From an uncultured Leptospiraceae bacterium (lineage in GTDB: Bacteria; Spirochaetota; UBA4802; UB4802), in the NCBI GenBank assembly GCA_964629365.1, contig CAZVRB010000004.1:18827-82826 (forward strand): DNA of 64,000 nt, in the 5' to 3' direction. The notes below the pieces were generated by a model. It saw only the letters and a program-made list of their open reading frames with translations. It had not been told where the DNA came from and did no database searches. The position numbers and the translations under genes were made by a program. Shown in pieces: positions 1 through 50,756 of this stretch (positions within the stretch are counted from its first letter, which is position 1; the number at the start of each line of letters is the position of its first letter).

Positions 1-810
1 CTGCTAGCCGGATGTGACATAGGGTCCCTCACTGCAAAGGCGGTGCTCTTAGACCTTGATACGGGTAAAATTCTATCGCAGGGGATACTGCCTGTCAGGC
101 CCACTGCAGCTGAATCATCATACGCTATCATGAATATAGTACTCAACCGGGTTGGCCTGTCTCACGATGATATTGATTACCTCTGCAGCACCGGGTATGG
201 CAGGCTGGAAATTCCATTCGCGGACATGCACATCAGTGAAATATCCTGTCATGGAAGAGGGGCACACTGGCTTGACACGTCAATCCGTACAGTGGTAGAT
301 ATTGGCGGCCAGGACTGCAAGGTCATCTCAATTGATAACGCGGGGTTTATCAATGACTTCATTATGAATGATAAATGCGCTGCCGGTACAGGACGATCAC
401 TCGAGATGCTTGCAGCCACAATTGGGGTTCCACTTGATGATTTGGGCAGGCTTTCACTCAAATCCCGGAAACCAGTACCCATATCAAACAAGTGCAGCAT
501 TTTCATGGAGCTTGAAGTTCTTGATGCCATGTACCGCAAAAAAAAATTGAAACACATAGCCCACGGGCTTACCGACGCCGTCGCAAAACGTGTTGCATCA
601 CTGGCAAAGGCCGTCCCGGTGCGCGAAAGTATATGTATTACCGGGGGTGTAGCAAAAAACATGGGTGTTGTCCGTCAACTTGAGAAATACATGGATATAC
701 ATTTCAAAAAACTTCCAGTAGATTCACAGCTTATCGGCGCTATTGGTGCAGCCCTCTTCGCGGGTGATACATACACAAAAAAAGGGGTCCCATCGGAGGC
801 AAAATGCTGA
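1..810 (+). CDS. BadF/BadG/BcrA/BcrD-type ATPase (HgdC-like CoA-substrate-specific enzyme activase), 5' end truncated by window edge
   Basis: N-term LAGCDIGSLTAKAVLLD matches the GIDxGST actin-fold start and continues in-frame to base 1. DIGGQDCKVI, NDKCAAGTGRSLE (cluster-Cys motif) and NKCSIFMELEV motifs present. Only a few codons are missing upstream. Confidence 0.8.
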   Translation: MLAGCDIGSLTAKAVLLDLDTGKILSQGILPVRPTAAESSYAIMNIVLNRVGLSHDDIDYLCSTGYGRLEIPFADMHISEISCHGRGAHWLDTSIRTVVDIGGQDCKVISIDNAGFINDFIMNDKCAAGTGRSLEMLAATIGVPLDDLGRLSLKSRKPVPISNKCSIFMELEVLDAMYRKKKLKHIAHGLTDAVAKRVASLAKAVPVRESICITGGVAKNMGVVRQLEKYMDIHFKKLPVDSQLIGAIGAALFAGDTYTKKGVPSEAKC

Positions 811-1649
811 CGGCGGGTATCGATGTGGGAACTCGTTTCATAAAGGTGGCAATCACTGATGGGAACATTATGATGGGTTCAAGCTGTATAGAACTGGCTG
901 CCGATTTCAGGGGAATACTTAAGGCCTGTTTTCAAGAGGCACTTGCAGATGCCGCCAATTTCAGTTCTACCCGGGTACGGAAAAGACATGTAAAGAAAAT
1001 AATAGCCACGGGATACGGTGCACACCTTGTAAAACAGGCGGCATATACCATACAGGAATCATTCTGCCTTGCACGTGCCGCTCGTTTCCTGTCACGGGAT
1101 ACCAACACGGTGATAGACAGCGGTGGACTATTTATAAAGGTGGTTACTGTCAATGAACATGGCTTCCCCGAAGAAAGCCATGTCAATGAAAAATGTGCAG
1201 CCGGCAGTGGCAGGTTCCTGGAGATGATTTCCGCGGCATTGAATATTTCGATTAATGAAGTATCACATACAGCATCCAAATCAACAAATCCATATAATAT
1301 CGTGAACAGCTGTGCCGTGTTCGCCGAAAGCGATGTCATCAGCCAGGTAAACGCGGGAACATGTGGTGAAGATATCATCGCCGGTGTTCTCAATGTAATA
1401 ACATTAAAAACCATAACACTCCTGGAAGGTGTGGATTCCGGTGATACAATTGTCATGGCAGGGGGACTTGCAAAGATACCTGCATACATACACGCTCTTG
1501 AACGTTATTCAAAGAAAGATATTTCTCTCATATCTATTGACCCGCAAATGCCTGCAGCATTTGGCGCAGCCCTTATTGCACAGGGAAGGACAATGGTATC
1601 ACACGAAAGAAAAAATGGGACGGGTAGAAAACAAATCCATGATAAGTGA
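804..1649 (+). CDS. second BadF/BcrAD-type activase ATPase (HgdC/BcrA-like)
   Basis: MLTAGIDVGTRFIKV N-term, NEKCAAGSGRFLE and SCAVFAESD motifs, about 280 aa. Overlaps the upstream activase by 7 nt, so the tandem pair resembles BcrA/BcrD. Confidence 0.8.
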   Translation: MLTAGIDVGTRFIKVAITDGNIMMGSSCIELAADFRGILKACFQEALADAANFSSTRVRKRHVKKIIATGYGAHLVKQAAYTIQESFCLARAARFLSRDTNTVIDSGGLFIKVVTVNEHGFPEESHVNEKCAAGSGRFLEMISAALNISINEVSHTASKSTNPYNIVNSCAVFAESDVISQVNAGTCGEDIIAGVLNVITLKTITLLEGVDSGDTIVMAGGLAKIPAYIHALERYSKKDISLISIDPQMPAAFGAALIAQGRTMVSHERKNGTGRKQIHDK

Positions 1650-2436
1650 AAAAGTGAATAATAAAAAGACACAGGATCATGCACCTCTTATTGAGGTCAT
1701 ACACAAAATAACCGGAAACACCACAAGAAGATTCATGGAGTATCCACTTGATGATGGCATTGAAGCTGACAGGTTTAATCTGCGGTCACCCCATGGAGTG
1801 AAAAAACCCGTAATCGTCACCGCAGAAGACACCGCCCTGGAAATTGGATCACCCCATCACCGGGCAGTAAACACGCTGCTGTGGACACACCGGAAAGGAG
1901 TTATCCGCAACCGTGTACTAATCGGAGGCATTGAGATGGAAGAAGCAATGCCGGGACCAGTTACGGCCGCTGTTTGCAGTATGACCGAGATAGAAGAATC
2001 TCTCGACACAAGCGGTCCAAACTTCCAGGCCCTGCGCCATCTTTCCAATATGCTGCCGGGATACATGATTCGCAGTATGCCAGGCAAGATGTGGGTACGT
2101 CTCCACCATAATCTGGTAAAATCAGGTTTTTCATCATATTCACTTGCCCAGTGTCTTGCCCATGCGTATCGTCAATTACATCCAGCCATCAGCGCAGTAG
2201 AGGTAATGGTAGTGATGGGTATACCGGATATCGTAGAGGAAATGGAGTCCGTAGATCTCAGGGCCAGGATCATTAACGGTACAAATCGCAACATTTCACT
2301 CGAAGAAGACGGGTCCCTGGTCTGTGAAGACCTGGATTGTACACACTGCGAGAATATGGCCTCCTGTGATATCATCAGGGAAATAATAAAAAAGAAAAGA
2401 GGAAATAATGGGAAAAACCATCGCCTTCACGGGTAA
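1613..2436 (+). CDS. hypothetical protein with C-terminal Cys cluster (CEDLDCTHCENMASCD); family not recognised
   Basis: Long ORF in a third frame. The likely start is ATG 1613 (MGRVENK) or ATG 1637 (MISEKV), just overlapping the activase stop. No motif I recognise, and it overlaps the CooC-like gene start by about 29 nt. Confidence 0.45.
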
Positions 2437-3181
2437 GGGAGGGGTGGGCAAAACCGCTCTATCCGCCATATGCGGGAAAATACTCATTGAGAAAGGGGAA
2501 CGGGTTCTTTTTATTGATGCTGATCCTGCGATGGGGCTTGCTACCGCCCTGAATGTGAAAGAGTATACAACCATAGGACAGGCACGAGAAGAGATTATCC
2601 GGCAGGTACGAACCACATCCCCGGAGGATGACAAGGCCCCCCTGGCTGATATCATTGATTATCTTCTTCTTGCATCACTGCACGAGGCTGAAGGATACAG
2701 CCTCATAGTAATGGGGCAGACTGATACACTTGGATGTTTTTGCTCATTGAATTCCCTTCTAAAGGATACTATCACTTCAATAAGTGAAGAATACGACTGG
2801 ATTATTATTGATGCCGAAGCAGGATTTGAGCAGGTAAATCGACAGGTTATGAACACCGTACAATTCCCGGTCATCGTCAGCGATAATACAATGCGTGGTG
2901 TTAAAACCGCATCAATGATCATGGAGGTCATAGATCGCATCCCATCAATGAATCCCCTGCGTACCGGTCTCATTTTTAACAGGGTAGAAAAGGCAGAACC
3001 GCAACTTGTACGCAACATCAAATCAGCCGGAATCAATTATTACGGGCATGTGCCTGCTGATAGTGATATATCAAGAATTGACCTGGATGGCACCTCAATT
3101 CTTGATATATCCCGCGATTCTATATCCATGCAAAACATGAAACGTATTCTCTCCGAAAGTAAAATTCTTCAAAAAACTTGA
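2408..3181 (+). CDS. CooC/MinD-family P-loop ATPase (CooC-type metallochaperone-like)
   Basis: Deviant Walker A TGKGGVGKT, and a GCFCS (C-x-C) motif where CooC has its metal-binding CxC. About 257 aa. AGAGGA RBS upstream. Confidence 0.7.
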   Translation: MGKTIAFTGKGGVGKTALSAICGKILIEKGERVLFIDADPAMGLATALNVKEYTTIGQAREEIIRQVRTTSPEDDKAPLADIIDYLLLASLHEAEGYSLIVMGQTDTLGCFCSLNSLLKDTITSISEEYDWIIIDAEAGFEQVNRQVMNTVQFPVIVSDNTMRGVKTASMIMEVIDRIPSMNPLRTGLIFNRVEKAEPQLVRNIKSAGINYYGHVPADSDISRIDLDGTSILDISRDSISMQNMKRILSESKILQKT

Positions 3182-3286
3182 GATTACACTCCCTGAAGTT
3201 TTGTTTCAGCCACTTCACGCCGTACACGACATCACCCTGTTAACCCTGTAGAATGCACTCACATATTATGCGTGAGGAGTAATCAG

Positions 3287-4681
3287 ATGAGAGACGTATA
3301 TATAATTGGAGCTCACACGGTGAAGTTCGGAAAGCACCTCGACAGGTCAATATCCGACCTGTGCAGGATGACAGTTTTCCCCTGCCTCGAAGATGCCAGC
3401 CTTAAAAAAGATGATATACAGGCTATCTGGTTCGCTAATTCTGCATGGGGAGAATACCGGCGACAGGTTTGCATAAGAAGCCAGGTTGCTTTACGACCTC
3501 TTGGTATTGACACGATACCAATGACAAACGTGGAGAATGCATGTGCGGGTGGATCAACTGCCCTCCATCACGCCTGGCTTGGTGTAGCCAGCGGCCTGTA
3601 CGATATCACCATGGCACTTGGCGCAGAAAAAATATACGACCCCAACCGGCACCTGGTATTCTCCGGTTTCCTGACCGGAATGGATGTAGCCAACTTCAAG
3701 GAATCGGTTGCGTTGCTGCCCTCATTATCAATGTCCGATGACGATAAAGAAGCAATGTTCCAACATATCGAAAAGTATGCAAAGAACACAAAGGGAAAGT
3801 CCAAAAAAAGACAAACCGTAAAACAGAAAATCAGGGACACCCGTGATTCCCTGGTAATTGCCATACGAATCGGGGAAAGCATGGGATATGATGCGCTAAA
3901 AATTATTAAGAAACTGATGACCGGTGATCATTCCCCCTTCATGGACGTGTATGGCCATGAAGCCAGGAAGCATATGAAAAAATACGGCAGTTCAATTGAA
4001 GACCTTGCCGTAATTGCATCAAAAAACCATATGCACAGCACCATGAACCCCAATGCCCAATACCAGTTCCCTATCTCTAAAGAAGATGTTCTGGCAGACC
4101 GTCTTGTATCCTGGCCATTGACACGTTCAATGTGTGCTCCCGTCGGTGATGGTGCCGCCTCGTCAATACTCTGTGACGAAAAAACTGTAAGAAAACTTGG
4201 CCTCATGTCCCAGGCAGTAAAAATCAGGGCATCCATACTTGGCTCAGGAAAAGCAAGAGAAGAAAACGAGATGGACCTTGGCCAGCGTCTGGCAAATCGT
4301 GCCTATGAACAGGCGGAGCTTTCACCATCAGACATGGATATAGCCGAGGTTCACGATGCAACAGCTTTTGGAGAACTTCACCAGACAGAAAACCTGGGAT
4401 TCTGCAATGCCGGAGAGGGCGGCACCCTGGCCCAGAGCGGTGCCACACGTATCGGAGGAAAAATTCCCGTTAACACCAGTGGAGGACTTGAATCCCGCGG
4501 GCATCCCATCGGGGCATCCGGGCTTGGACAGGTTCATGAAATCGTCACCCAGCTGCGGGGTAACGCAGGAAAACGGCAGGTAGCATCCCCAAGAATAGGA
4601 ATAGCAGAAAACGGCGGCGGGGCTCTTGGTGTAGAAGAAGCGGCCATGTGCATACACATACTGGAAACACCACAAAAGTAA
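3287..4681 (+). CDS. thiolase-fold protein, SCP-x / nonspecific lipid-transfer-type acetyl-CoA C-acyltransferase with ~80 aa insertion
   Basis: VYIIGAHTVKFGK, NVENACAGGSTAL (active-site Cys) and C-terminal NTSGGLESRGHPIGASG / IAENGGGALG motifs. GAGGAG RBS 7 nt before ATG 3287 (the track ORF starts earlier at 3272). A lysine-rich segment around residues 150-230 is absent from canonical thiolases. Confidence 0.75.
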   Translation: MRDVYIIGAHTVKFGKHLDRSISDLCRMTVFPCLEDASLKKDDIQAIWFANSAWGEYRRQVCIRSQVALRPLGIDTIPMTNVENACAGGSTALHHAWLGVASGLYDITMALGAEKIYDPNRHLVFSGFLTGMDVANFKESVALLPSLSMSDDDKEAMFQHIEKYAKNTKGKSKKRQTVKQKIRDTRDSLVIAIRIGESMGYDALKIIKKLMTGDHSPFMDVYGHEARKHMKKYGSSIEDLAVIASKNHMHSTMNPNAQYQFPISKEDVLADRLVSWPLTRSMCAPVGDGAASSILCDEKTVRKLGLMSQAVKIRASILGSGKAREENEMDLGQRLANRAYEQAELSPSDMDIAEVHDATAFGELHQTENLGFCNAGEGGTLAQSGATRIGGKIPVNTSGGLESRGHPIGASGLGQVHEIVTQLRGNAGKRQVASPRIGIAENGGGALGVEEAAMCIHILETPQK

Positions 4682-6468
4682 TGAAGGAACAGGTGAACGA
4701 TATGATGAGTCAAAACTTGAAAATATTTATCGGAAAGATGAGAATGCTGAAAAATGTAACCAGGTCATTGTTCATCTTCATGGGAGAAGATATCAAACGG
4801 GGTACTCTTTCAAAGAACCTCAAGGGCATCGGCAAGATGGAGCTTGCCGAAGAGATGTCCTGGGCAGAACTTGTGGAAGAAAAAGCCGCAAAATATGGCA
4901 GCAGGACATACCTTACATATGAGGACAGAAACTTCTCATACAGTGATATGAATGACAATGCAAATCGTATCGCAAATTTTCTTAAGAAAGCCGGTGGTCA
5001 ACAGGGTGTGGGGGTTGCCATCTTTATGGACAACAGTCCACGTTTTCTTGATGTTTTCTTTGGCCTGCAGAAGATCGGAATGTATGCCGTCCCGGTAAAT
5101 ACATCATTAAAAGGTGAGGGCATGAAGTATATTCTCAATCATTGTGATGCCCGGTTTCTCGTGATAGACCAGCAGCACCTTCACACACTCCAAAAGATCG
5201 AAGCCAACCTTGATACCATTCATACCATTATCGTGAACCCCTCAGAGAATTCTCCCATCATAGCTGAAAGAAATTATCTTTCCCTTGATGACGCCTACAC
5301 TGAGAATCCCCATAATCCGGGTACAGGCTATAACAGGGACGACATCTGTTTTATTACCTACACCTCCGGCACTACCGGGCTTCCCAAGGGTGTGGTCTAT
5401 CGCTATCGCAACAGCGGGGTGAAGTTTTTCTCTCTTATCGCCCATATATTGTGGAGAAAACGAGATGTCATGTATACCTGCATGCCCCTTTTCCATGCCA
5501 ATGCTCTTGTTGTTACCTGTACCAGCGCACTGCACGCGGGAGCCCGTGTTGTGCTTGAGAAAAAGTTTTCGGCAAGTCGATTCTGGCACTCTATTCGTAC
5601 ACATGGCGTTACTACTTTCAATACCATCGGTGCCATGATCCCTATCCTCATGAAACAGCCCGAGAATGAACTTGATGGAAAAAACAAAGTTCGTTTTATC
5701 ATATCTGCCGCATGCCCCCCTGAACTATGGGAACAATTCGAAAAACGCTTCAATACAACAATATACGAAACATATGGAGCAGTTGACAGCGGCGGCAAAA
5801 CCATCTTAAACCTGGGCACCGCACCGGTGGGATCAATTGGCAAACCACCCATGAAGGTAACATATCGCCTGGTTGACGAACACATGAATGATGTACCTGA
5901 AGGAGAACCGGGAGAATTAATATTCCCCGCGCCAAAAGAAAAGACTGCCAGTTCGGGTGTTGAGTTTTATAAAAATGAAGAAGCAACCTCTGCCAAGCAA
6001 AGCGATGGGTGGATCAGGACCGGGGATCTTCTGAAACGGGATAAGAAAGGATACCTTTATTTTGTAGGACGTAATACCGAGTCCATGCGGATCAAGGGGG
6101 AAAATGTCTCTGCCTACGAAGTTGAACAGGTAATACAAAATCATCCTTCTGTACTGGAAGTTGCCGTATATGCGGTCCCCTCAGACCTGGCTGAAGATGA
6201 GATCATGGCAAGGGTTAAAATTGTGGACGGGAAAAGAATAACAGAAAAAGAACTATGGGAATTCATCATTGAGAACCTGGCAAAATTTGCCGTCCCCAGG
6301 TATATTAAATTTGTTTCTGACTTTGATAAAACAGAGACCCATCGCATAAAGAAGAAACAGCTGGAGCAGGACGGAATTGTAGAAGGTACATACGACGCAC
6401 AGAAAAACACCTATATAACGACAGGAAATAACAAACCGAAAGAAGCTGCAACCGGACACAGTGTATGA
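4681..6468 (+). CDS. AMP-dependent acyl-CoA synthetase/ligase
   Basis: YTSGTTGLPKGV AMP-binding motif, a TGD motif and the two-domain ANL layout. ATG 4681 overlaps the thiolase stop (TAATG), which suggests translational coupling. The track ORF start at 4648 is probably too early. Confidence 0.8.
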   Translation: MKEQVNDMMSQNLKIFIGKMRMLKNVTRSLFIFMGEDIKRGTLSKNLKGIGKMELAEEMSWAELVEEKAAKYGSRTYLTYEDRNFSYSDMNDNANRIANFLKKAGGQQGVGVAIFMDNSPRFLDVFFGLQKIGMYAVPVNTSLKGEGMKYILNHCDARFLVIDQQHLHTLQKIEANLDTIHTIIVNPSENSPIIAERNYLSLDDAYTENPHNPGTGYNRDDICFITYTSGTTGLPKGVVYRYRNSGVKFFSLIAHILWRKRDVMYTCMPLFHANALVVTCTSALHAGARVVLEKKFSASRFWHSIRTHGVTTFNTIGAMIPILMKQPENELDGKNKVRFIISAACPPELWEQFEKRFNTTIYETYGAVDSGGKTILNLGTAPVGSIGKPPMKVTYRLVDEHMNDVPEGEPGELIFPAPKEKTASSGVEFYKNEEATSAKQSDGWIRTGDLLKRDKKGYLYFVGRNTESMRIKGENVSAYEVEQVIQNHPSVLEVAVYAVPSDLAEDEIMARVKIVDGKRITEKELWEFIIENLAKFAVPRYIKFVSDFDKTETHRIKKKQLEQDGIVEGTYDAQKNTYITTGNNKPKEAATGHSV

Positions 6469-6480
6469 GTTGAACGATCA

Positions 6481-6516
6481 GGGGAGAGAACCACAATTCA
6501 ACTCTCCCCTTCTTTT
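6481..6516. terminator. bidirectional rho-independent terminator hairpin between convergent genes
   Basis: GGGGAGAG-13 nt loop-CTCTCCCC followed by TTCTTTTCC on the + strand. Confidence 0.4.
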
Positions 6517-8147
6517 CCCTGCATCATTACACGATATTCACTTGGTGTCTTACCTGTCTGTTTTTTAAATTGCCGGTGGAAATGCGTCAGGTTGTCGAAA
6601 CCCACATGATACGCGATATCTATAATCTTTGCATCTGTTTCCATCAACAAATCTTTTGCCCCTTCAATACGCTTGTTGTTTATATAATTCGATATGTTTA
6701 TTCCCGTTGTTTTTTTAAATACCTGCCCCATGTAATCTTCATTGAGACCAAATTTTTTCGACAGATCCTTACGGTCATATCGCTCCTGGTAATTCACATC
6801 AAGGTATTCAATGACATCATGTATCATATCCCTTGGATCAGGTTTCACCGACTCACCCTTAATTGAATTGAGTATTCGCTCCATTTTCTTTGTTTTTTTC
6901 AAAAGGGCACCGTACAGCGAATCCTTCTCTCTTTTCATTCGTTCAAAATCATAGATATAATACAAAGCGAATATGGTGAATACCAGCGGCACATGGAAAA
7001 ATATCAGCATCGGGAGTTCATCGAATCGAAATGTGGCCATGTAATACGTATTTCTAAGAACCGAGACCGGAACCGGGATAGCCACAAAAAGGAAGTACCA
7101 GTATCGTCGTGGGTCCCGTCGTATACATATAAAAAAAAGTACAGCAGCGGTTATAATACAGAGATTAACAAAAATGACCGTTCCCAGGCCTGCACCCTTG
7201 ATAAGAAAGGACGTATCAGGTGCTAAAACTATTGCCAGCACCAGAGGCATACCCAGTATAAATGACATCCATACTATATACTTATTTTTTATATCAAAAA
7301 ATTCCATGACCGCATGCAACGCGATAAAATTAACCAGGGTGAGGCTCATCAGGAACATCTTGTATCGCAAAAGGCCTGAAATAGCACAATTGAAATCCAG
7401 CATGGTCACATTACCGGCGAGGGTGAATAAAACGAGAAGGAAGAAATAGAGGTATTCTCTCCGGCCGGTACGGGATACCGCCAGTACCCCGAGTCCCAGC
7501 AGGAAAAGAAAATTGAGTGCCACAGAAGAAATATTGATCAGTATTGGAGTTTTGTTTTCTATTCTATGCGCAAAATACCCGCCGGGATATTCTGTAATTC
7601 CCATATATCCATTGATGCCGCTGATCACATGTGAAAAGACCCGAATAGCGATAGTATTATATTCACCATACCGAACAAGCGTATCGGGTAGTAGATAAGA
7701 ACGGCCCTGTTGCCATGAGAAATGGTACCTGTCATCTTCTTTATCCGGTATGGTTCCATTTGCACCCACCTGTATACCATTGAGGAACGTCTCATCTGCC
7801 ACACCAATTCGTCCCAGGAGAAGACATAATGATTTTCCCCTGTACTCTTCACCTATAAAAATTTTTTTCCGCAGCCATATAGTGGCCTCAAGGTTTTGCT
7901 GATCAATAATCAGGCGGGTAAAACTTCCAGGTAATTCCAGTTCAGGATAATCTCTATCATCCAGGGAAGGAAGGGCAAGTTCAGGATTATCGAAGGTTGA
8001 ATACTTCCATGTTCCACTGCAATCAATATCAGTGTCAGGGGTTCCTGCGGTAGTACATGCAGTACACAACAAGACAACACAGGCGATGCATATATATTTG
8101 ATAGTAGTCATAATCACATGAACATGAGTTTTGCAATATTTCCCCAA
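6498..8147 (-). CDS. 7TMR-DISM (DISMED2 extracytoplasmic domain + 7TM) fused to AraC-family HTH regulator
   Basis: Signal peptide and lipobox-like CTAC, an about 180 aa periplasmic beta-rich domain, then 7 hydrophobic helices. C-terminal HTH_AraC: DIAYHVGFDNLTHFHRQFKKQTGKTPSEYR. Confidence 0.7.
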   Translation of the reverse strand: MGKYCKTHVHVIMTTIKYICIACVVLLCTACTTAGTPDTDIDCSGTWKYSTFDNPELALPSLDDRDYPELELPGSFTRLIIDQQNLEATIWLRKKIFIGEEYRGKSLCLLLGRIGVADETFLNGIQVGANGTIPDKEDDRYHFSWQQGRSYLLPDTLVRYGEYNTIAIRVFSHVISGINGYMGITEYPGGYFAHRIENKTPILINISSVALNFLFLLGLGVLAVSRTGRREYLYFFLLVLFTLAGNVTMLDFNCAISGLLRYKMFLMSLTLVNFIALHAVMEFFDIKNKYIVWMSFILGMPLVLAIVLAPDTSFLIKGAGLGTVIFVNLCIITAAVLFFICIRRDPRRYWYFLFVAIPVPVSVLRNTYYMATFRFDELPMLIFFHVPLVFTIFALYYIYDFERMKREKDSLYGALLKKTKKMERILNSIKGESVKPDPRDMIHDVIEYLDVNYQERYDRKDLSKKFGLNEDYMGQVFKKTTGINISNYINNKRIEGAKDLLMETDAKIIDIAYHVGFDNLTHFHRQFKKQTGKTPSEYRVMMQGKEGES

Positions 8148-8337
8148 TCACTGCATGAAAACATAAAAAAATCAACGAATTTATTATACTCTCCTTGTAA
8201 TTGACAACACGATACGCAAAAATAAATACACTACATCAAGAATGCAGCAACTTCCTTAATATACTGCAAGAAATAGAACTTACTATATTGTAGTATTCAT
8301 CATACTTTCAAAGGGAAGAGACTACAGAACGTTTTAA

Positions 8338-8784
8338 TTGCAGAGGCACTTAATTATGAATGATAATGTATTTCTTCGTCTATACAAAGTTATATTTATC
8401 CTGGCTGCACTCTGGAATATTTGTGTCGGTGCTACAGGACTCCTGTTCCAGAATTATTCCATTCAATTGTTTTATGGAAGCAGTGCGTTGCATGAGACGT
8501 TTATCGCAATGCTGAATTATCGCATCGTTATGCTGGCAATAATTATTTTCGGGCTTGGATATTTTATCGTATCCAGGGCACCCCTCTTGAACAGGGGAAT
8601 AATATGGCTTGGGCTTTTAAGCAAGCTCATCCTGTTTTGCATATTTACGTTTCATTTTTTCACCGGAAATACCACCATATTCGCATTTCTTCTCGTCTGC
8701 GGAGACATGGCATGGTCACTTATATTCTTATATTTTCTATTCAAAAGTTCGCATCACGTAAAATATAATTTTTTAACAGGATAG
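8338..8784 (+). CDS. small integral membrane protein, hypothetical
   Basis: 148 aa, 4 predicted TM helices, AT-rich promoter region upstream. Confidence 0.4.
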   Translation: MQRHLIMNDNVFLRLYKVIFILAALWNICVGATGLLFQNYSIQLFYGSSALHETFIAMLNYRIVMLAIIIFGLGYFIVSRAPLLNRGIIWLGLLSKLILFCIFTFHFFTGNTTIFAFLLVCGDMAWSLIFLYFLFKSSHHVKYNFLTG

Positions 8785-8792
8785 AATACGGC

Positions 8793-9548
8793 ATGAAAAA
8801 AAAACCAGATACTACACTGTCCCCCCTGTATACCTATCATGAAGGGATGCAATGGAACCCCGTCGAAAAGGTGATATTTGAGCGAAGGAGCATTCGTGTC
8901 TTCAGGAAAAAAGATGTACCGGATTCCCTTATCAAAAGAATTTTAGAAGCAGGTCGGTTTGCCCCTTCAGCGGGCAACTGCCAGCCCTGGAAATTCGTGG
9001 TAATAAAAGATCCACAGGTTATAGAGCAAATGGAACGGGACACAATACGAATTACCCGACTCCTGATGTGGTTCATTGACTACGAACGGGGACCCGTAAG
9101 GCGTATTCTTCTGGGCACTCCGGTAAGGCTTTTGGCCAGGCTTGTGCCCAACATGCTGCACCCCATACCATTCAACCTGCTTCAGCGCATCGCCGCTGGT
9201 TCAGTACCCGTGTATCATAATGCCCCGGTTATAATCCTTCTTTTGGTAGACAAGCGAGGGGTTGGAACACCATCACTGGACGCGGGAATTTGCGGACAAA
9301 ACATGGTACTGGCTGCACACAGCCTGGGTCTGGGCACATGCTGGATCGGAATGATCACCTTGCTGATGAAAATGAAGAAGTGGCGTAAACGTTTTGGGGT
9401 TACATACCCATTTACCCTTGACGACTGTCTCATACTGGGCTGGCCACGGGGGGATTATGATGGTGAAATAGATCGCGAAATACAACTCGTTGAATGGATC
9501 AAAGAAGGTTCATCGTGGGACAAAACTACAGAACGACAGGGGGAATAA
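8793..9548 (+). CDS. nitroreductase family protein
   Basis: RRSIRVF...AGRFAPSAGNCQPWKFVVI signature of the NADH oxidase/nitroreductase fold. Confidence 0.75.
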   Translation: MKKKPDTTLSPLYTYHEGMQWNPVEKVIFERRSIRVFRKKDVPDSLIKRILEAGRFAPSAGNCQPWKFVVIKDPQVIEQMERDTIRITRLLMWFIDYERGPVRRILLGTPVRLLARLVPNMLHPIPFNLLQRIAAGSVPVYHNAPVIILLLVDKRGVGTPSLDAGICGQNMVLAAHSLGLGTCWIGMITLLMKMKKWRKRFGVTYPFTLDDCLILGWPRGDYDGEIDREIQLVEWIKEGSSWDKTTERQGE

Positions 9549-9549
9549 C

Positions 9550-9906
9550 ATGGCAAACCTTTCCATTCTGGATAAAGCAAAAATACCCAACTATTTCAAG
9601 TCAAAGCATATACGAACCGGCCTGGTCGTCTTTGATCCGTCACTGTGCACAGGATGTGGAATCTGCGTTTCCATCTGCCCTGCCGGTGCCATAACGATGA
9701 ACAGCCATATCCCGGGGGAGCGAACGAAAATCCCTGAGCTTGTACAGCTCTTTCATGATAAAGACATTCTCGCCTGCATGGCCTGCGGTGATTGCACGGC
9801 AGCATGTCCCAGTGATGCTATACAAATTAAGAGAGGATACAATACGAAGTATTATTTCAAAAAGATATCCCAGGTGCCCGACTTTGCTTTCCCCAAAAAA
9901 TACTGA
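9550..9906 (+). CDS. 4Fe-4S dicluster ferredoxin-domain protein
   Basis: Two CxxCxxCxxxCP motifs (CTGCGICVSICP, CMACGDCTAACP). The start MANLS at 9550 abuts the nitroreductase stop. Confidence 0.7.
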   Translation: MANLSILDKAKIPNYFKSKHIRTGLVVFDPSLCTGCGICVSICPAGAITMNSHIPGERTKIPELVQLFHDKDILACMACGDCTAACPSDAIQIKRGYNTKYYFKKISQVPDFAFPKKY

Positions 9907-9923
9907 GATTGTTACTTATGATA

Positions 9924-9950
9924 CCGGCATAAAGCCGGTTTCCGTATTTC
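9924..9950 (+). terminator. weak terminator-like hairpin after the ferredoxin gene
   Basis: CCGGC-ATAAA-GCCGG followed by TTTCCGTATTTC. Confidence 0.3.
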
Positions 9951-10069
9951 AGTAAAAAATAGCATACAATTTTTTACTTGACTAAAAGCCATTCACCCCT
10001 TCTTTACTTATCAAGCCTACCCGGTTTTATAACGGACATCTTATTAAAAACTTAAGGAAGTGAACCCGT

Positions 10070-10771
10070 ATGAAAAAAGCATTTTTTGCGGTTTTTCTAA
10101 TGTTGTTTGTCGTATCCTGTGGTCCATCAGCTAATCCGCAGCTCAAGGCAAAGATCAGCCCATACTTTACACAGGATTCTTCCACTCGTATCAGGGCATC
10201 AAAGAAATTTTATTCACCCATGCCCCTTGCCATTGGGCAGTACGCAGTTTATGGAACCATTGAAGATGATGGTACCCGCTCAATCACAAAGACCAGTATT
10301 GTTGGCAGGGAAGCCGGTGGCTGGATATATGAATCCTACACCCTGTCTGAGACCCAGGAGAGCACAGTACAAATTCTCATCAGGGGACTTGAAAAAGTTC
10401 GAAAGTCAGGAAACATTGATGACATCGAACTCTTATGGGTAAAGATTAAGGGAGAGGACGGCAAAGTGCAAAAGCTTGAAGGCCCTGTTCTCATGATGGC
10501 CAAATCACTGTACAAAAAACACCTTTCAGGACTGGATGTAACTGTTTCCCAATATGTGAACGGTGGTACAGTCAAGGTTCCCGCTGGATCATTCGCAGGC
10601 ACTAACAAGGTCAAGTCAGAGGTCACCTTCTGGGGTAAAAAGTATAAGAGCACAGGCTGGTACCATTATAAAGTCCCTATTAACGGTATGGTTAAATCGG
10701 TAACTGATGATGGTGATTCCACAATGGTGCTTCTAGAGTATGGCACCCGGGGCGCAAAATCTTCATTTTGA
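10070..10771 (+). CDS. lipoprotein, hypothetical
   Basis: MKKAFFAVFLMLFVVSC lipobox signal peptide, GGA-rich RBS. Confidence 0.5.
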   Translation: MKKAFFAVFLMLFVVSCGPSANPQLKAKISPYFTQDSSTRIRASKKFYSPMPLAIGQYAVYGTIEDDGTRSITKTSIVGREAGGWIYESYTLSETQESTVQILIRGLEKVRKSGNIDDIELLWVKIKGEDGKVQKLEGPVLMMAKSLYKKHLSGLDVTVSQYVNGGTVKVPAGSFAGTNKVKSEVTFWGKKYKSTGWYHYKVPINGMVKSVTDDGDSTMVLLEYGTRGAKSSF

Positions 10772-10786
10772 TCGTATTATACAATA

Positions 10787-10810
10787 GATCCTCCCAAAAC
10801 CGGGAGGATC
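10787..10810. terminator. bidirectional terminator hairpin
   Basis: GATCCTCCC-AAAAC-CGGGAGGATC followed by TTGTTATTTC, between convergent genes. Confidence 0.5.
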
Positions 10811-14229: not shown

Positions 14230-16812
14230 ATGGAAACATTGATACGTATCATTGAATCACTGCCCTTATGGGTTATATTGCTGTTCTTTGCGTTTTTTGT
14301 GGCTGTGATAGCAGATATTATATGGAGCATTAAGGCCAGAAAACGTATATATAACATACTGGCAAGGGCTGCTGATAACCCGGATAAAGCAAGTGACATT
14401 GTTGCACCCATCTTTAAAAAAAGATATGCCTTCATTCGTTCTCAAGCCATCGAACGATTCGCAAAAGAAGAGGGTAATGATATTATATATATAAGCGGCA
14501 TCGATCGTTACTGGATCCAAAACCTGTTACGACTGAAGAGAAAACGTGACTTTAACAGGATCATGCATTATGCACCCGATACGGGCCTGTTTACCTGTTT
14601 CCTGGTAAGCCTCGATAAAAAACGGTTTGCCAGGCTTCTTCTTTCATTTCTTGAAGAAAGTGGTGATTTTTTATACATGCGACGTGTTGCTCTTTCAGGA
14701 CAGGGTGAAGATTTCGACGGGGCCAGGGCCAGGGAAATGTTTCTTGATCATCTTGATGAGATCCGCGAAATGACCGGAGATCCCGAATGGGCTTCACGAT
14801 ATTTCGCTATTAAAATACTGCTCCATGATAATGACAACCGGTCCATTCGCGCATTGTGGGACGCATTCGAGGACTCATATCCACTGGTACGGAAAACAGT
14901 CGCTCACGAATTTACCACCGACGAAACAGACAGGCTGCTTGACAGGTTGACTGCACTCACCATAAATGATTACACCTACGAGGTTCGGCACACCGCATGG
15001 AATCGTATCATGAATGAATTCCCGGATTATCGTTTCCCCGATTCAAAAAAAATGAGCCAGACTCAATCATTCCATATTCTTGAGCTGCTGCGACCCGAAA
15101 TAAAAGAAGATGAGAACCTTGCTTTCTACTTTCTTGACCAAAATAACCTGGAATTGCGTCTTCCTGCGGCAAGATACCTGAAAGAAAACGCGGCACTTGA
15201 CAGGCTGTGCCTGGATGTAGACCTCGGAGATAAAAAATTACTGGAACGTAACTTCTCATTACTTGAAAAAGCTGCACAGGTAAACGTAACGGATTTTCTT
15301 GCTTGCATTGAGAAAACAGATAACCCCGCAAGCCTGCTTATATGTGCCCGCATTCTGCTGCAATCGGGTCCCCGTCATTTCATCACCACCCTTGCCAGAA
15401 AATCATTCTCCCTGTATGATGGTACCTCCCGGTACAGGGAGATATATTCTGCAGCACTTGATTGCGTGGCAGCCAGGGGTAACGATGACGCCCTGAAACT
15501 CATGGACCGTGAATTGCAAAAGCGCAAAGGGGAAGTTGAAACCCTGCCTGTATTATTAGAACACGTACCTCCTCATGCTGACCATATCATTCAGGATACA
15601 CTCATTGGTTTTTTGAAGGACGAAAAGATCAAGCCCAGGGATATTCTTCGCCAGGCCCTGGTTAAAATGTCCCCACCGCATGTCCTTGAGCAGGTACTGA
15701 AAATTTTGTATGCCGGGCGGGATGCCCATCCACATATTGTAAGGAAGGACGCCCTCAAACTTCTGGGGCAGATGGATCTTCATTACTGTCTGCAGCTTTT
15801 GCTTGAAAATCTTCCATCCCTGCCAGTGGATGAGGCATCCGAGTTCACCCGGATACTTTCCTCTTACCCGAAAAAGGAATTCAACTCAAGGGTAGGAGAA
15901 CTTCTTGATTCCGGTGATGCCAGGATTCGCGCTTCTGTAATAACGGCATTACCGGTTACCGGTGACAAGTCATTTATTAAACGAATCACAAAATCATTAA
16001 AAGACGCCGATCCGGACGTGCGAATAGCATCGGTCTGGGCACTGGTGAACTTCGAGGAATACAAGTCTCTTCAGCAGACCGTTGACATGCTGCGTGACCC
16101 GGTAAAACGTGTAAGGAAGGAAGTGGCAAGTGCACTGGGTTTACATGGTTCCGTTAAAATGATCAAGGAACTCAAACAGATACTTCATGATGAGAACGAA
16201 GTTGAACCGGTAAAGAATGCAGCAATCATCGGACTGGGTGCCTCAAAATTAAAGGAATCAATTGACATTCTCATTGAAAAACTTGAAGAGCCCGACAATG
16301 ATGATGAAAATAAACAACTTAGCCTTGCGCTGTCATCTAAAACAGATACAAAAGATGCCCGTCACCTGGTTGAACATTTCAAGGATGCCGATCCCTCTAT
16401 GCGTGAGAAGATAACACGTATCTTTATAATGATGGAAGAAAAAGGTGAAAAGATGCTTACCGACCTGCTCAGAGAAGACATCAAGTCATTGAATCCCTAT
16501 ATAGCCGAGATTCTTGATGCAACGGGCTATGTTGAAAGCATCATTCGCTCCCTCTCTCACCGGGATCCTGCTATACGACGCGATTCAGCCGACACTCTCT
16601 CACGGATAGGCACCAAGTCCGCGTTTCGGGGAATTGTCCTTGCAGCACGTGACCCAGACGAAGAAGTACGGGTAAAAGTAACAAGGGCACTTGAAAAACT
16701 GGAAACCAAAGAAGGCAAAAAGATTTTGGATGAACTTGAAAAGGATCCTGACAGAAAAGTACGTAAATATACACACTGGGCACTGGAAAGACTTCGATCA
16801 AAGTCATTGTAG
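14230..16812 (+). CDS. membrane-anchored HEAT/PBS-lyase-like repeat protein
   Basis: AAGGAGG RBS, one N-terminal TM helix, then repeated DPDVRIASVWAL / DPVKRVRKEVASALG HEAT-type repeats across 860 aa. Starts 24 nt after the cyclase stop. Confidence 0.65.
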   Translation: METLIRIIESLPLWVILLFFAFFVAVIADIIWSIKARKRIYNILARAADNPDKASDIVAPIFKKRYAFIRSQAIERFAKEEGNDIIYISGIDRYWIQNLLRLKRKRDFNRIMHYAPDTGLFTCFLVSLDKKRFARLLLSFLEESGDFLYMRRVALSGQGEDFDGARAREMFLDHLDEIREMTGDPEWASRYFAIKILLHDNDNRSIRALWDAFEDSYPLVRKTVAHEFTTDETDRLLDRLTALTINDYTYEVRHTAWNRIMNEFPDYRFPDSKKMSQTQSFHILELLRPEIKEDENLAFYFLDQNNLELRLPAARYLKENAALDRLCLDVDLGDKKLLERNFSLLEKAAQVNVTDFLACIEKTDNPASLLICARILLQSGPRHFITTLARKSFSLYDGTSRYREIYSAALDCVAARGNDDALKLMDRELQKRKGEVETLPVLLEHVPPHADHIIQDTLIGFLKDEKIKPRDILRQALVKMSPPHVLEQVLKILYAGRDAHPHIVRKDALKLLGQMDLHYCLQLLLENLPSLPVDEASEFTRILSSYPKKEFNSRVGELLDSGDARIRASVITALPVTGDKSFIKRITKSLKDADPDVRIASVWALVNFEEYKSLQQTVDMLRDPVKRVRKEVASALGLHGSVKMIKELKQILHDENEVEPVKNAAIIGLGASKLKESIDILIEKLEEPDNDDENKQLSLALSSKTDTKDARHLVEHFKDADPSMREKITRIFIMMEEKGEKMLTDLLREDIKSLNPYIAEILDATGYVESIIRSLSHRDPAIRRDSADTLSRIGTKSAFRGIVLAARDPDEEVRVKVTRALEKLETKEGKKILDELEKDPDRKVRKYTHWALERLRSKSL

Positions 16813-47496: not shown

Positions 47497-48618
47497 ATGA
47501 TGAAAATACTATTAATGGCAGATTTACACCTGGGAGCTGTTTCCCCGGATACAGGAATTGATGACTCTGTGCGGCTGGATACCTTCAAAAAGATCGTATC
47601 CCTTGCGCATGAACATGATATTCTCATCATAGCCGGTGACCTTTTTGAAGGCCCTTTTGCAGACACCTATACCTTCATGCAAATGAATTCAGAACTGCAG
47701 TCACTTATTGATGCCGGTATTGATGTGATATTTACCGCGGGTGAAAGTGAGTTCCGTGATATTCCTAATCTCAGCAACCTGCTTTATATTCCGGCAAGCC
47801 ACACATTTCTTAACGATCACCCGGTATCCCCGGTTCATATAGAAAAGAACGGCACAAACCTGTACATATACAGCAAGCCGGCACTTGATACACAGGATGT
47901 TGCCACCATTCAAAAATGTGACAGCGAAGGATTCCACCTGGGAGTTTTCCATATTGACTTTGACCCGGGAAATCCCACCGGTGAAAGTCTCGTATACAAG
48001 CTTCCACGAGAAGCGGTAAAATCCCTGGATCTTGACTTTTACGCCCTGGGGCATAATCACAATTTCAAGCTATATAAGTTTCAGAACAGGATCATTGGTG
48101 CCTACCCGGGAAGTCCCGAAGCCACATCACCCGATGAGACCGGTGATCGATATGTATTGTCCATACATGTGGCTGGATCGGACATTATGCAGATTAAAAG
48201 GCTGGCTGTAAATACATTGAGCCTTGAAGAATTGCATATAGACTGCGAAACAATCAACTCCCAGGTTGAACTGGTGAATACTATTAACGCATCGGCTTCT
48301 CCCCGAACTGTACTCAGGGTTACCCTTTCAGGGAACAGGTCCTTTCCAATCGAAGGTATTTTTAATGCTCTTCAGGACAGGTGTGCAGATTTCAGACTTA
48401 TGGATAATTCAATACCCGACCTGCATCTTTTGATAATGCAGCATGCGTCTGAGCATTCACTCAGGGGAACACTTATGACAAGGTTACAGGAACTGGTAAA
48501 AGAAGACATGATTCCCGGAGATATCGACAAGACTATCCTTGCTGAAATACTGCACAGGATTAATACATCAAAACAATTCACACCGGAGGAATTGCTGTGC
48601 GAATCAAGAAATGCATAG
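47497..48618 (+). CDS. SbcD/Mre11-like calcineurin-type metallophosphoesterase
   Basis: MKILLMADLHLG, IIAGDLFEG and ALGHNH phosphoesterase motifs. Confidence 0.75.
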   Translation: MMKILLMADLHLGAVSPDTGIDDSVRLDTFKKIVSLAHEHDILIIAGDLFEGPFADTYTFMQMNSELQSLIDAGIDVIFTAGESEFRDIPNLSNLLYIPASHTFLNDHPVSPVHIEKNGTNLYIYSKPALDTQDVATIQKCDSEGFHLGVFHIDFDPGNPTGESLVYKLPREAVKSLDLDFYALGHNHNFKLYKFQNRIIGAYPGSPEATSPDETGDRYVLSIHVAGSDIMQIKRLAVNTLSLEELHIDCETINSQVELVNTINASASPRTVLRVTLSGNRSFPIEGIFNALQDRCADFRLMDNSIPDLHLLIMQHASEHSLRGTLMTRLQELVKEDMIPGDIDKTILAEILHRINTSKQFTPEELLCESRNA

Positions 48619-50756
48619 CAACATGTCCCGGTGTATTCCAGGACAAAACCATTGTACTTAATGACGGCATTACCGTTGTGCATGGAAAAAACAATGCCGG
48701 GAAAACGCTTCTTTCCCGGGCCATGATTGATGCCATCTTTCCATTCACGTCTTCTCCACTGCTTGAAGGGGAATCATGGAAAAACATCTCCATTGAAATC
48801 GATACCAGGTTTGATAACGCCACCTACAGGTTCATGCGAAAGGACATGAATCATTGCTCCATAAACACGGTGAACGACAGGGGAAGCATTTTACATTCTC
48901 ATAAAATTAACAATACCGGTAACTCAATTTCTGACATCGTACATGAATTGCAGTCAAAAAACGGTTTCGTCCGGCTGTCTGACTTTTACCGCAACATTGG
49001 CTTCCATGGCTTCATTGCAGCCGGTTACCTGCCATCTGCCGTTGATCTTGACAACCTTCCCCCTGTTTCACGGGACTCCATAGACTTCCTGTTGCTACAG
49101 GACCGCAGCAATTATTACGCAGCATATAGTGCAATCCAGGAATCTTACAGCAACAGGGACATTTCATCGAAAGTACACAATGAGCTAATGAACCAGACTT
49201 TCAAATTCGAACGTCTTCACAAGGACACGGTAAAAAAACTTGAACTAATGAAAATCAATGCATCCAAGAGAGAAAAACAACAAGGTGAACTTGCCCGGTA
49301 CAACGAGGAGATTAAATCCATATCCAGCAAGATTGATGCCTTCAGTATTCGCAAAAATCACATATCCAGGATACTGGAGGCCTGTTCCAGGAAAAACACC
49401 CTTGTTCAAGATATACAGAATATACAGAAAAAAATTAAGACCGGGATAGAACAGGAGAAGGAGATCGCCGCCAGGGAAAAAGAACTGGAGAAGTCATACC
49501 CTCAATTTAGAAATTTCGACCAGGCAAAGAAGAACAACATTAAGCATATGCAGGACAGGTACAGGGAGATACGGACTATTAATGAAAAAATTGAAAATGA
49601 ACTTTTTAAACGTGAATCGAGGGTCAGGCGTGTAGGCAGTATACTTGCAGGAATAAACCTGCTGGTATTGGCAGCTGTAGTATGGTTATTCCTGCAAACT
49701 TCACTCATACTAAGCCGTGACGAAAAAGTGATTATTATCGGCAGCATGATCATTATGCAGCTTCTCAGCTATATTTCACATATAATATACAGGTATCGTC
49801 TTTTCCACTCATCGGTAATATATAACCTGGAACAACAAAAACAGGATCTTGAGCAGAAGCTGGAGAATATATTACGGGCAAATGACATCGACATGCAGAA
49901 TATTGACCTTGAAGAGATTTATGAATTTCTTTTACAGTATTTTGAAGAATACGGAGAATTTAACGAGAAACAACTGGATCTTTACATGCTGAAGAAGGCG
50001 CATAATGAACAATATATCAATTCCAGCCTGGAAGAAAAAAAAGAAGCGCTGGAAGCAGACCTGCAAAGCTTATCGGGAACCATACAGGAAATGGCCAACA
50101 TGGCAGGAATTGATGCGGAGATACTGAACGATGAAGAGTCACTGCTTACCATGATGGATGAAACCATTGAAAAAATAGACACACTGACAAGCGAGCTCAC
50201 CGCAAAACAGAAAATTGCCGACAGCATATCATTTAATCTCCAGGAAAGTCCGGACGCAACGAATGAACAGAAACAACTTGAACAGCAGCTTGACGAATAC
50301 AATGAAATGTTAGATACTCTTACCAGAAGGCAGAAGCACGTGAAATACCTGCTTGATCTTTTCGACGAATCGATACAGAATAGAATGCAAATACAAATGG
50401 AACAGCTTGTGCATACAACAGCATCGATATTCAGGGAATTAACCGGGTCCAGTTATTCTCAACCAATTGACATGAATACCATTGTCAATGTAATGGAAAA
50501 AAATCATACTGACAGTACCCGCAATGTTTCGTTTTCTCACCTCCTTCAATTGGCAATAAAATGTGCCCTCCATGATTTTTTGGTTGATTCTGGTGTCTCA
50601 ATTCCTTTAATTCTTGATGATCCCCTTGTTTTTATAGATGAGGATAAAATTGATGCATTCGGGAAGATTATTGAAAAAACAGCACAATCGCGTCAGGTTA
50701 TAGTATTCACTCACAGCAATGCGCTGAACAGCTGGTATACCCCGGTAGAATTGTAA
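48597..50756 (+). CDS. SMC/Rad50/SbcC-like ABC ATPase with central transmembrane hairpin
   Basis: Walker A GKNNAGKT at the N-terminus, long coiled-coil-like Glu/Lys/Gln-rich arms, and C-terminal signature/Walker B/D-loop (IPLILDDPLVFIDEDK). Two hydrophobic helices sit mid-protein at the coiled-coil apex. Overlaps the SbcD-like gene by 22 nt. Confidence 0.65.
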   Translation: MRIKKCIATCPGVFQDKTIVLNDGITVVHGKNNAGKTLLSRAMIDAIFPFTSSPLLEGESWKNISIEIDTRFDNATYRFMRKDMNHCSINTVNDRGSILHSHKINNTGNSISDIVHELQSKNGFVRLSDFYRNIGFHGFIAAGYLPSAVDLDNLPPVSRDSIDFLLLQDRSNYYAAYSAIQESYSNRDISSKVHNELMNQTFKFERLHKDTVKKLELMKINASKREKQQGELARYNEEIKSISSKIDAFSIRKNHISRILEACSRKNTLVQDIQNIQKKIKTGIEQEKEIAAREKELEKSYPQFRNFDQAKKNNIKHMQDRYREIRTINEKIENELFKRESRVRRVGSILAGINLLVLAAVVWLFLQTSLILSRDEKVIIIGSMIIMQLLSYISHIIYRYRLFHSSVIYNLEQQKQDLEQKLENILRANDIDMQNIDLEEIYEFLLQYFEEYGEFNEKQLDLYMLKKAHNEQYINSSLEEKKEALEADLQSLSGTIQEMANMAGIDAEILNDEESLLTMMDETIEKIDTLTSELTAKQKIADSISFNLQESPDATNEQKQLEQQLDEYNEMLDTLTRRQKHVKYLLDLFDESIQNRMQIQMEQLVHTTASIFRELTGSSYSQPIDMNTIVNVMEKNHTDSTRNVSFSHLLQLAIKCALHDFLVDSGVSIPLILDDPLVFIDEDKIDAFGKIIEKTAQSRQVIVFTHSNALNSWYTPVEL

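Follow-up and report, generated by a model that had tools for sequence, protein, structure and literature searches.

A CooC-type ATPase and an ACS-derived small protein as a predicted accessory pair of benzoyl-CoA-reductase-type gene cassettes

The window (the whole stretch of DNA that was analysed, 64,000 nucleotides from a Spirochaetota MAG) carries a gene for a CooC-type ATPase that overlaps with a gene for a truncated AcsB/CdhC homologue, and these two genes, judged from their sequences and neighbourhoods, appear to represent a conserved accessory pair of a class-I benzoyl-CoA-reductase-type (BCR-type) enzyme. This finding is larger than that of the first-pass annotation, which had described a CooC-like ATPase outside a CODH/ACS context, since it concerns a widespread and so far unannotated pair of an ACS fragment and a CooC-type ATPase on BCR-type enzymes. 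We are highly confident of the family and of the module membership of the CooC-like protein. The best explanation of the pair, which we hold with moderate confidence, is that a distinct CooC/AcsF-type clade and its ACS-like partner form a maturation module of the BCR-type enzyme.

The operon and the placement of the CooC-like ATPase

The genes and motifs discussed here are listed in Table 1. BcrAD subunit 1 has its ATG 3 nt ahead of the first nucleotide of the window: translation in frame 1 from that nucleotide gives LLAGCDIGS..., in agreement with MLLAGCDIGS of the JGI contig L092, and the L172 gene call makes the subunit 270 aa long. A tblastn search with HGD-D proteins detected no HGD-D gene in the window, because the window begins 3 nt past the ATG of the first BcrAD gene. 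Indeed, L092, which is 92.3% identical over window positions 1..10794, carries two divergently transcribed HGD-D genes just upstream of the position of the window edge. The thiolase-like and acyl-CoA ligase genes downstream represent operon context outside the conserved core, and they fit the processing of a carboxylic acid as a CoA thioester. The earlier description of the locus as a CoA-thioester cluster is right for these two genes, whereas the conserved context is a BCR/HAD-type cassette of two HGD-D genes with one or two BcrAD genes, and the two BcrAD genes on the upstream side are the more informative neighbours. A scan for promoters and terminators performed no better than on shuffled sequences.

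Table 1. Features of the operon at the beginning of the window
Feature	Position	Strand	Remarks
BcrAD/BadFG-type ATPase subunit 1 (ASKHA; BzdQ/BcrA-like)	1..810	+	PF01869 2e-47, TIGR00241 2e-62
BcrAD/BadFG-type ATPase subunit 2	804..1649	+	PF01869 5e-36, TIGR00241 5e-50; 7-nt overlap with subunit 1
ACS-beta (AcsB/CdhC) middle-domain-like small protein with C-terminal 4-Cys motif	1615..2436	+	ATG 1615 (L172 gene call) or 1639
ACS-like C229-x4-C234-x2-C237-x5-C243 motif	2323..2367	+	numbered from ATG 1639
CooC-type SIMIBI ATPase	2408..3181	+	257 aa; 29-nt overlap with ACS-like gene
Deviant Walker A G9-K10-G-G-V-G-K15-T16 (GKGGVGKT; signature Lys10)	2432..2455	+	direct reading; aligned with CooC1 GKGGVGKT
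CooC-type CxC site C110-F-C112 (preceded by G109)	2735..2743	+	aligned on CooC1 C112-Y-C114
Thiolase-domain (SCP-x-like) protein	3272..4681	+	PF22691/PF00108, NF004720; likely start ATG 3287; 464 aa in L172
AMP-forming acyl-CoA ligase	4648..6468	+	PF00501 8e-75, NF004808 7e-126; likely start near 4702; 588 aa in L172

The CooC-like ORF starts with ATG, preceded by GAGGA 5 nt upstream, and its product has 2402 database homologues at E<=1e-5 (best non-identical match 1e-90), so that a chance ORF can be dismissed. Both motifs reported in the first-pass annotation, the GKGGVGKT and a GCFC at the position of the CxC of CooC, were borne out by direct reading and by alignment with CooC1, whose own deviant Walker A is GKGGVGKTT (PMC6006190). 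In pairwise and profile alignments C110 and C112 (codons 2735..2737 and 2741..2743) fall on Cys112 and Cys114 of CooC1 (PDB 3kje), which are strictly conserved and bind Zn or Ni at the dimer interface (PMC6006190). A lack of conservation of the CxC had been named as evidence that would speak against the CooC assignment; C110 and C112, together with N115, were found to be invariant in an alignment of 55 homologues reaching down to 35% identity.

A phmmer search of the PDB sequences with the single protein gave only one full-length match, CooC1 of Carboxydothermus hydrogenoformans (3kje; residues 5-194, E 1.5e-8), and ArsA, MinD and McdA matched in the P-loop region only. With the family profile CooC1 again came first (9.4e-24, residues 7-253 against 3-250), followed by archaeal MinD (5.6e-16), ArsA (2e-13) and NifH (about 1e-7). 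A neighbour-joining (NJ) tree, a distance tree with E. coli MinD and E. coli Mrp as its two outgroups and without CooC2, CooC3 and AcsF, was built from 21 members of the CooC-like family and 20 canonical CooCs; the latter had been gathered with CooC1 as query, and two of them were confirmed inside CODH/ACS clusters. The CooC-like family was monophyletic in 97 of 100 bootstraps and the canonical CooCs in all 100, and both together were separated from MinD and Mrp in 99 of 100. In this tree the CooC-like clade lies outside the CODH/ACS-linked CooC clade, as its sister with about 24% identity between the two. The window protein itself is 21% identical to CooC1, 17% to E. coli MinD and 14% to E. 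coli Mrp. Both the full-length profile match and the tree thus support the earlier label "CooC-like", and the clustering with ParA/MinD that would have contradicted it was not seen.

A MinD- or ParA-type positioning or partition ATPase might still be suspected from the generic Pfam and NCBIfam matches of the protein (CbiA, AAA_31, MinD), all of which stay under the family cut-offs. The MinD and ParA matches in the PDB searches are at least 8 orders of magnitude weaker than that to CooC1 and mostly cover the P-loop or the C-terminal half only, and the NCBIfam MinD/ParA models score far under their cut-off (61 bits vs 202). Moreover, no minC, minE or parB neighbours were seen in the operon or at the homologue loci inspected, and MinD has no Cys at the aligned CxC position. 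We regard this identity as effectively refuted by the profile scores, the NJ tree, the missing partner genes and the CxC, and assign it hardly any probability. Membership in the Mrp/ApbC/Nbp35 family of Fe-S carriers was likewise rejected: the motif is CxC and not CxxC, identity to Mrp is low, the PF10609 score of 21.7 is under the cut-off of 27.1, and E. coli Mrp has no Cys in the stretch surrounding the aligned position.

On the basis of these comparisons the CooC-like protein is placed in a distinct clade of CooC/AcsF-type ATPases (COG3640) which appears to have no existing name, and we file it as a paralogous clade with a new client. Many of its homologues are named "CO dehydrogenase maturation factor" in IMG and "AAA family ATPase" or "cobyrinic acid a,c-diamide synthase" at NCBI; in the window organism the CooC-like/ACS-like pair is annotated as "AAA family ATPase" and "hypothetical protein".

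The ACS-like partner

The ACS-like gene gave only weak matches to CdhC/AcsB models of Pfam and NCBIfam (PF03598 1.5e-3, TIGR00316 7e-6). A word-indexed homologue search returned 5 matches and was replaced by an exhaustive profile search, which revealed a family of 354 clusters at 50% identity. Full-length members have about 250 aa, and none of the 150 best-scoring matches listed exceeds 319 aa. In an alignment of 122 members R154, C234, C237 and C243 are invariant. The AlphaFold2 model calculated with this 122-sequence alignment reached a pLDDT of 89.5 (a model from a 6-sequence alignment, pLDDT 34, was discarded), and a Foldseek search with it against the PDB gave 23 matches at E<1e-3, every one of them an ACS/CdhC chain.

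The family profile aligned to residues 322-513 of C. hydrogenoformans AcsB with 86 bits, i.e., to the middle domain and the beginning of the C-terminal domain. The W-x-R motif of the family aligns on W430-V-R432 of AcsB, and C234-x2-C237 on C509-x2-C512, the first two ligands of the A-cluster [4Fe-4S] (C509LLC512...C521...C531), one of which forms the bridge to Ni in ACS. Of the A-cluster ligand set this CxxC alone aligns, together with the matching middle-domain fold; in the profile alignment the Ni-binding C598-G-C of AcsB has no counterpart, and the A3 body is absent as well. From this alignment we consider the 4-Cys tail to be derived from the A-cluster motif. The protein is thus predicted to have an ACS fold and cannot be a functional ACS. 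In one family member (P0214) a 2x[4Fe-4S] ferredoxin domain is joined to the ACS-like protein, which agrees with a plain electron-transfer Fe-S role of the latter.

This partner changes how the earlier statements about CODH/ACS have to be read. CooS, the ACS domains A1 and A3, and CdhD were not detected by tblastn in the window or at 167 loci, and no CODH linkage of the CooC-like gene was found in about 170 loci examined. To this extent the claims that the window holds no cooS or acsB and that the gene stands outside a CODH/ACS context are correct; they fail for the overlapping upstream gene, which is a truncated AcsB/CdhC homologue corresponding to the ACS-beta middle domain. In the CODH/ACS clusters inspected, canonical CooC genes adjoin acsB/cdhC, and the overlap of the truncated homologue with the CooC-like gene suggests that the pairing of AcsB with AcsF/CooC has been kept in miniature. 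Linkage to cooS, acsA or acsB therefore exists in vestigial form only, through the adjacent truncated acsB homologue: the window contains neither cooS nor a functional acsB, and what stands beside its CooC-like gene is a shortened acsB homologue.

The benzoyl-CoA-reductase-type cassette across genomes

A survey of the neighbourhoods of the closest homologues had been proposed in the first-pass annotation, and it was carried out here; the pairing recurs with the BCR-type cassette and not with CODH. The homologues with 50-58% identity whose surroundings were inspected (Spirochaetota, a deltaproteobacterial MAG and a 4.9-Mb genome) all have two HGD-D genes, two BcrAD genes and an ACS-like gene next to the CooC-like gene. 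The homologues of Desulfitobacterium and Sporomusa (40% identity) lie in the same gene set with one BcrAD. A scan of GTDB species genomes yielded at least 600 pattern matches, and at least 558 of these stretches in species-representative genomes were confirmed by tblastn. They belong to Spirochaetota, Thermodesulfobacteriota, Chloroflexota, Myxococcota, Bacillota, Gemmatimonadota, Planctomycetota and one archaeon, and include Sutterella and the gut Bacillota Lachnospiraceae, Oscillospiraceae and Acutalibacteraceae.

Local HMMs were run on the best 80 of the at least 558 confirmed loci (species level, anaerobes). HGD-D, BcrAD, ACS-like and CooC-like genes were all present in 60 of these 80, and at least part of the cassette in 74, the 14 partial cases being mostly on contigs that end nearby. 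No cassette gene was found in the remaining 6, three of which have short flanks; next to the CooC-like genes of the three well-flanked orphan loci no CODH was detected. Where both genes of the pair occur, they are mostly no more than 150 nt apart (54 of 69 loci). One pair is often situated between two enzyme sets (e.g., at L044, L053, L094 and L132), and a maximally sensitive search found no pair within 10 kb of the close enzyme sets L093, L096 and L113. The flanking genes vary and comprise FAD oxidoreductases, enoyl-CoA hydratases, acyl-CoA dehydrogenases and thiolases. A Pfam survey of 143 flanking ORFs showed no genes for Ni transport, Hyp, CooJ/T or CODH among the 25 commonest families.

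The HGD-D subunits are distant matches to BzdN/BzdO, HadB/HadC and the double-cubane protein and score far under every curated BCR, HAD or DCCP cut-off (e.g., 180 bits vs 350 for double_cubane). The alpha subunit has three conserved Cys (77 sequences from cassette loci), and the beta subunit has six, at 34/72/99/261/292/326 of the L001 protein (67 sequences). In BzdNO the [4Fe-4S]-OH2 ligands are Cys95/128/380 of BzdO, and the [8Fe-9S] ligands are Cys36/73/100/263/293/327 of BzdN (PMC11971306). As the two Cys sets match these ligands, the cassette encodes a class-I-BCR-type enzyme with ordinary ligands: an alpha subunit with three Cys, a beta subunit with six of the [8Fe-9S] type, and BcrAD, the HGD-D genes being known from relatives including L092. 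Beyond the canonical three and six, no extra conserved Cys or His was found in the 77 alpha and 67 beta sequences, an observation that counts against the maturation reading. The unusual addition to this enzyme is the ACS-like/CooC-like pair.

The cassette survey also bears on the possibility that the protein is an ordinary CooC serving the maturation of a CODH or ACS whose genes lie at another place in the genome. It shares superfamily and motifs with such proteins, but its clade is separate from the CODH/ACS-linked CooCs in the NJ tree, CooS, A1/A3 and CdhD are missing at all loci searched, the orphan copies stand without CODH, and the linkage to the BCR-type cassette is consistent over many phyla. 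We have rejected this explanation on the separate clade, the lack of CODH linkage and the steady cassette linkage, and consider it very improbable.

Likely role and comparison with known systems

By analogy with AcsF, the CooC-like protein is most likely an ATPase that uses ATP to deliver a metal or a cluster to the ACS-derived subunit. AcsF has been described as the ATPase which inserts Ni into the A-cluster of ACS (Gregg et al. 2016, JBC; as cited in PMC10134865). The role in maturation is suggested by the fact that the ACS-like gene adjoins the CooC-like gene as acsB/cdhC adjoins CooC-type genes in acs clusters. Moreover, the occurrence of one pair per two enzyme sets and of sets that have no pair in cis points to an accessory function, a pattern often met with in maturation factors that act in trans. 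Metal insertion into a non-CODH enzyme, the reading of the first-pass annotation, is plausible and is adopted here; fold, family, motifs and conserved synteny are shown by the data, while the chaperone role, the client and the metal are inferred. In analogy to CooC1 and AcsF, the homodimer would close upon ATP binding through the signature lysine of GKGGVGKT, and its two CxC motifs would create a four-thiolate site at the dimer interface that might hold a thiophilic metal. Hydrolysis of ATP would then free the metal, or drive the completion of a cluster, and the recipient might be the cysteine-rich tail of the ACS-like protein, or a site which this protein forms together with the reductase.

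The metal bound at the CxC site of CooC1 is mononuclear Ni(II), with Zn competing (PMC6006190). For the CooC-like protein we consider nickel possible but doubtful, since the CGC is gone, the survey of flanking genes showed none for Ni handling among the commonest families, the enzymes of this family contain Fe-S clusters only, and a ferredoxin fusion occurs. Alternatively, the CooC-like dimer might be a carrier or scaffold for Fe-S clusters, comparable to Mrp, Nbp35 or NifH. A [4Fe-4S] would then bridge the two CxC motifs without any nickel, and the dimer would transfer, or help to build, the Fe-S cluster of the ACS-like protein or the double-cubane cluster in the reductase. As far as is known, every BCR, HAD or double-cubane enzyme characterised so far relies on Fe-S clusters alone, and the beta subunit keeps its six [8Fe-9S] ligands; the ACS-like protein retains only [4Fe-4S]-type cysteines and no Ni-binding CGC; the commonest flanking families lack Ni-handling genes; and the related SIMIBI ATPases NifH and Mrp bind interface clusters (PMC6006190). 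However, the motif is the CxC of CooC and not the CxxC of Mrp/Nbp35 (E. coli Mrp having no Cys there), CooC1 holds a mononuclear Ni or Zn at this site (PMC6006190), and a canonical BCR builds its clusters without such a factor, as BzdNO was produced in E. coli with its clusters assembled and without CooC-like or ACS-like helpers (PMC11971306), a result that also counts against the maturation role. We therefore judge the Fe-S carrier, including the proposed transfer or building of a cluster, to be rather unlikely.

Another explanation is that the ATPase is not a chaperone and serves as an integral, ATP-driven working subunit, for instance as a NifH-like gate, a reductase or a conformational switch that acts on the ACS-like subunit in the course of turnover. 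The tight operon linkage and the translational overlap with structural genes would agree with this, as would the middle domain of ACS, a docking domain which interacts with CoA and CoFeSP (PMC12289521). On the other hand, dedicated electron-activating ATPases are already present in the form of BcrAD, two enzyme sets can be served by a single pair, close sets occur that have none in cis, and the characterised CooC-type ATPases are chaperones with slow turnover (PMC6006190). A working subunit is accordingly an unlikely explanation in our view, and maturation by the ACS-like/CooC-like pair is preferred.

The most far-reaching form of the maturation reading, to which we likewise give a small probability, is that the cassette represents the first member of the BCR/HAD radical-enzyme superfamily to depend on nickel or another heterometal, with this metal installed by a CooC-type ATPase on an A-cluster relic. 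Such a relic would be a [4Fe-4S] on the ACS-derived subunit, in which a cysteine of the CxxC bridges to a further metal. If this were true, the enzyme might perform CoA-thioester chemistry that is beyond the reach of its Fe-S-only relatives, and the ACS middle domain together with its chaperone would have been exapted as a portable module outside C1 metabolism.

To our knowledge, CooC-type ATPases have been known solely as maturases of CODH/ACS, and the ACS fold solely from ACS. Here a miniaturised pair of both is attached to an ATP-dependent BCR-type enzyme. The recurrence of the pairing hints at an unusual metal centre or subunit in this enzyme class: either BCR-type enzymes can host a metal centre that nobody has sought, or the ACS middle domain has been reused, along with a dedicated chaperone, as a subunit that binds CoA or transfers electrons. 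We found no published description of an ACS-like/CooC-like plus BCR module in the full-text literature (subscription journals were outside the scope of the search), nor do the recent reviews and structural studies consulted on CooC, BCR and double-cubane proteins mention the module.

Among the known systems, CooC1 of C. hydrogenoformans (PDB 3KJE-3KJI), the Ni-binding ATPase of CODH maturation, is of the same fold family and of similar length (254 aa vs 257 aa of the CooC-like protein); both share the GKGGVGKT, a CxC in matching position with a conserved Asn after it, and a DxxAGxE-like switch II. In contrast to CooC1, the CooC-like protein (about 21% identity) belongs to a separate clade, is never encoded beside cooS at the loci examined, and has the family motif GC[FY]C[PS]xN instead of QCYCREN. 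AcsF resembles it as a CooC-type ATPase that is encoded beside an AcsB/CdhC-type gene, although the partner found here retains no more than the ACS middle domain and the beginning of the A-cluster motif and lacks the CGC. AcsB/CdhC proteins have 400-730 aa, whereas the ACS-like protein has about 250-265 aa and lacks A1, the A3 body and the Cys-Gly-Cys; its cysteines are spaced C-x4-C-x2-C-x5-C as opposed to C-x2-C-x8-C-x9-C.

We know of no BCR, HAD or DCCP operon with ACS-like and CooC-like genes. In its enzyme genes the cassette resembles the class I BCRs BzdNOPQ and MbdONQP (PDB 8S02, 9G87; PMC11971306), with which it shares the heterodimeric HGD-D core, two BcrAD and a gene context of CoA thioesters. 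It differs from BCR, 2-hydroxyacyl-CoA dehydratases and the double-cubane cluster protein in that its subunits stay under all curated cut-offs; the six cysteines of its beta subunit nevertheless correspond to the six ligand positions of BzdN.

Copy number of the ACS-like/CooC-like pair

One ACS-like/CooC-like gene pair, flanked on either side by a complete HGD-D + BcrAD set, was found in twelve loci (L044, L053, L058, L059, L065, L076, L078, L094, L097, L103, L132 and L133). By contrast, closely related enzyme sets are present at L093, L096, L110, L113, L130 and L131, where no such pair was found within 10 kb.

Within the ACS-like family, a protein of 308 aa (P0214) carries a 2x[4Fe-4S] ferredoxin domain fused at its C-terminus, while only the last three of the usual four cysteines in the ACS-like tail are retained. 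Such an arrangement is a hint that the tail cluster may serve in electron transfer.

Genes around the cassette

Features of the window and of related loci
Feature	Locus	Position	Strand	Remark
Thiolase-domain protein	window	3272..4681	+	thiolase HMM stretches 1-151 and 223-465
AraC-type regulator	window	6498..8147	-	HTH_18 match in last ~90 aa only
Nitroreductase-family gene	window	8793..9548	+	
Small [4Fe-4S] ferredoxin gene	window	9490..9906	+	Fer4-family matches; follows nitroreductase-family gene
719-aa ORF	window	48597..50756	+	no Pfam match
MCP-signal-domain gene / CobW-family GTPase gene	L006	9116..9931 and 121..813		
ZIP-family metal permease	L003	4016..4831		divergent from cassette

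The nitroreductase-family and ferredoxin genes may represent an electron-donor system for the class-I benzoyl-CoA-reductase-type enzyme; the two genes also accompany the cassette in other Spirochaetota loci (L001/L002 and L172). An AraC/HTH_18 regulator, similar in size to that of the window, lies close to the cassette in L001 and L172. The N-terminal ~450 aa of the window regulator, which contain several hydrophobic segments, gave no match in the Pfam search.

Downstream of the pair, the N- and C-terminal thiolase domains are separated by a Lys-rich insertion of ~70 aa. L001 and L016 each have a thiolase-like neighbour of comparable length, 473 and 465 aa respectively. The other window genes are ordinary, encoding a 7TMR-DISM hybrid histidine kinase, a PAS adenylate cyclase, a HEAT-repeat protein, penicillin amidase, ValRS and an OmpA-family protein.

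In the Desulfitobacterium locus L006, the MCP-signal-domain gene sits between the ACS-like and CooC-like genes, with the CobW-family GTPase gene 9 kb upstream. These genes and the permease of L003 are isolated hints of metal handling, with no overall enrichment.

Comparison with the acs cluster of C. hydrogenoformans

The C. hydrogenoformans acs cluster (L091) ends in a second CooC-type gene (16430..16765), which is cut by the locus edge and is absent from the neighbour-joining tree. This gene is presumably AcsF/CooC2.
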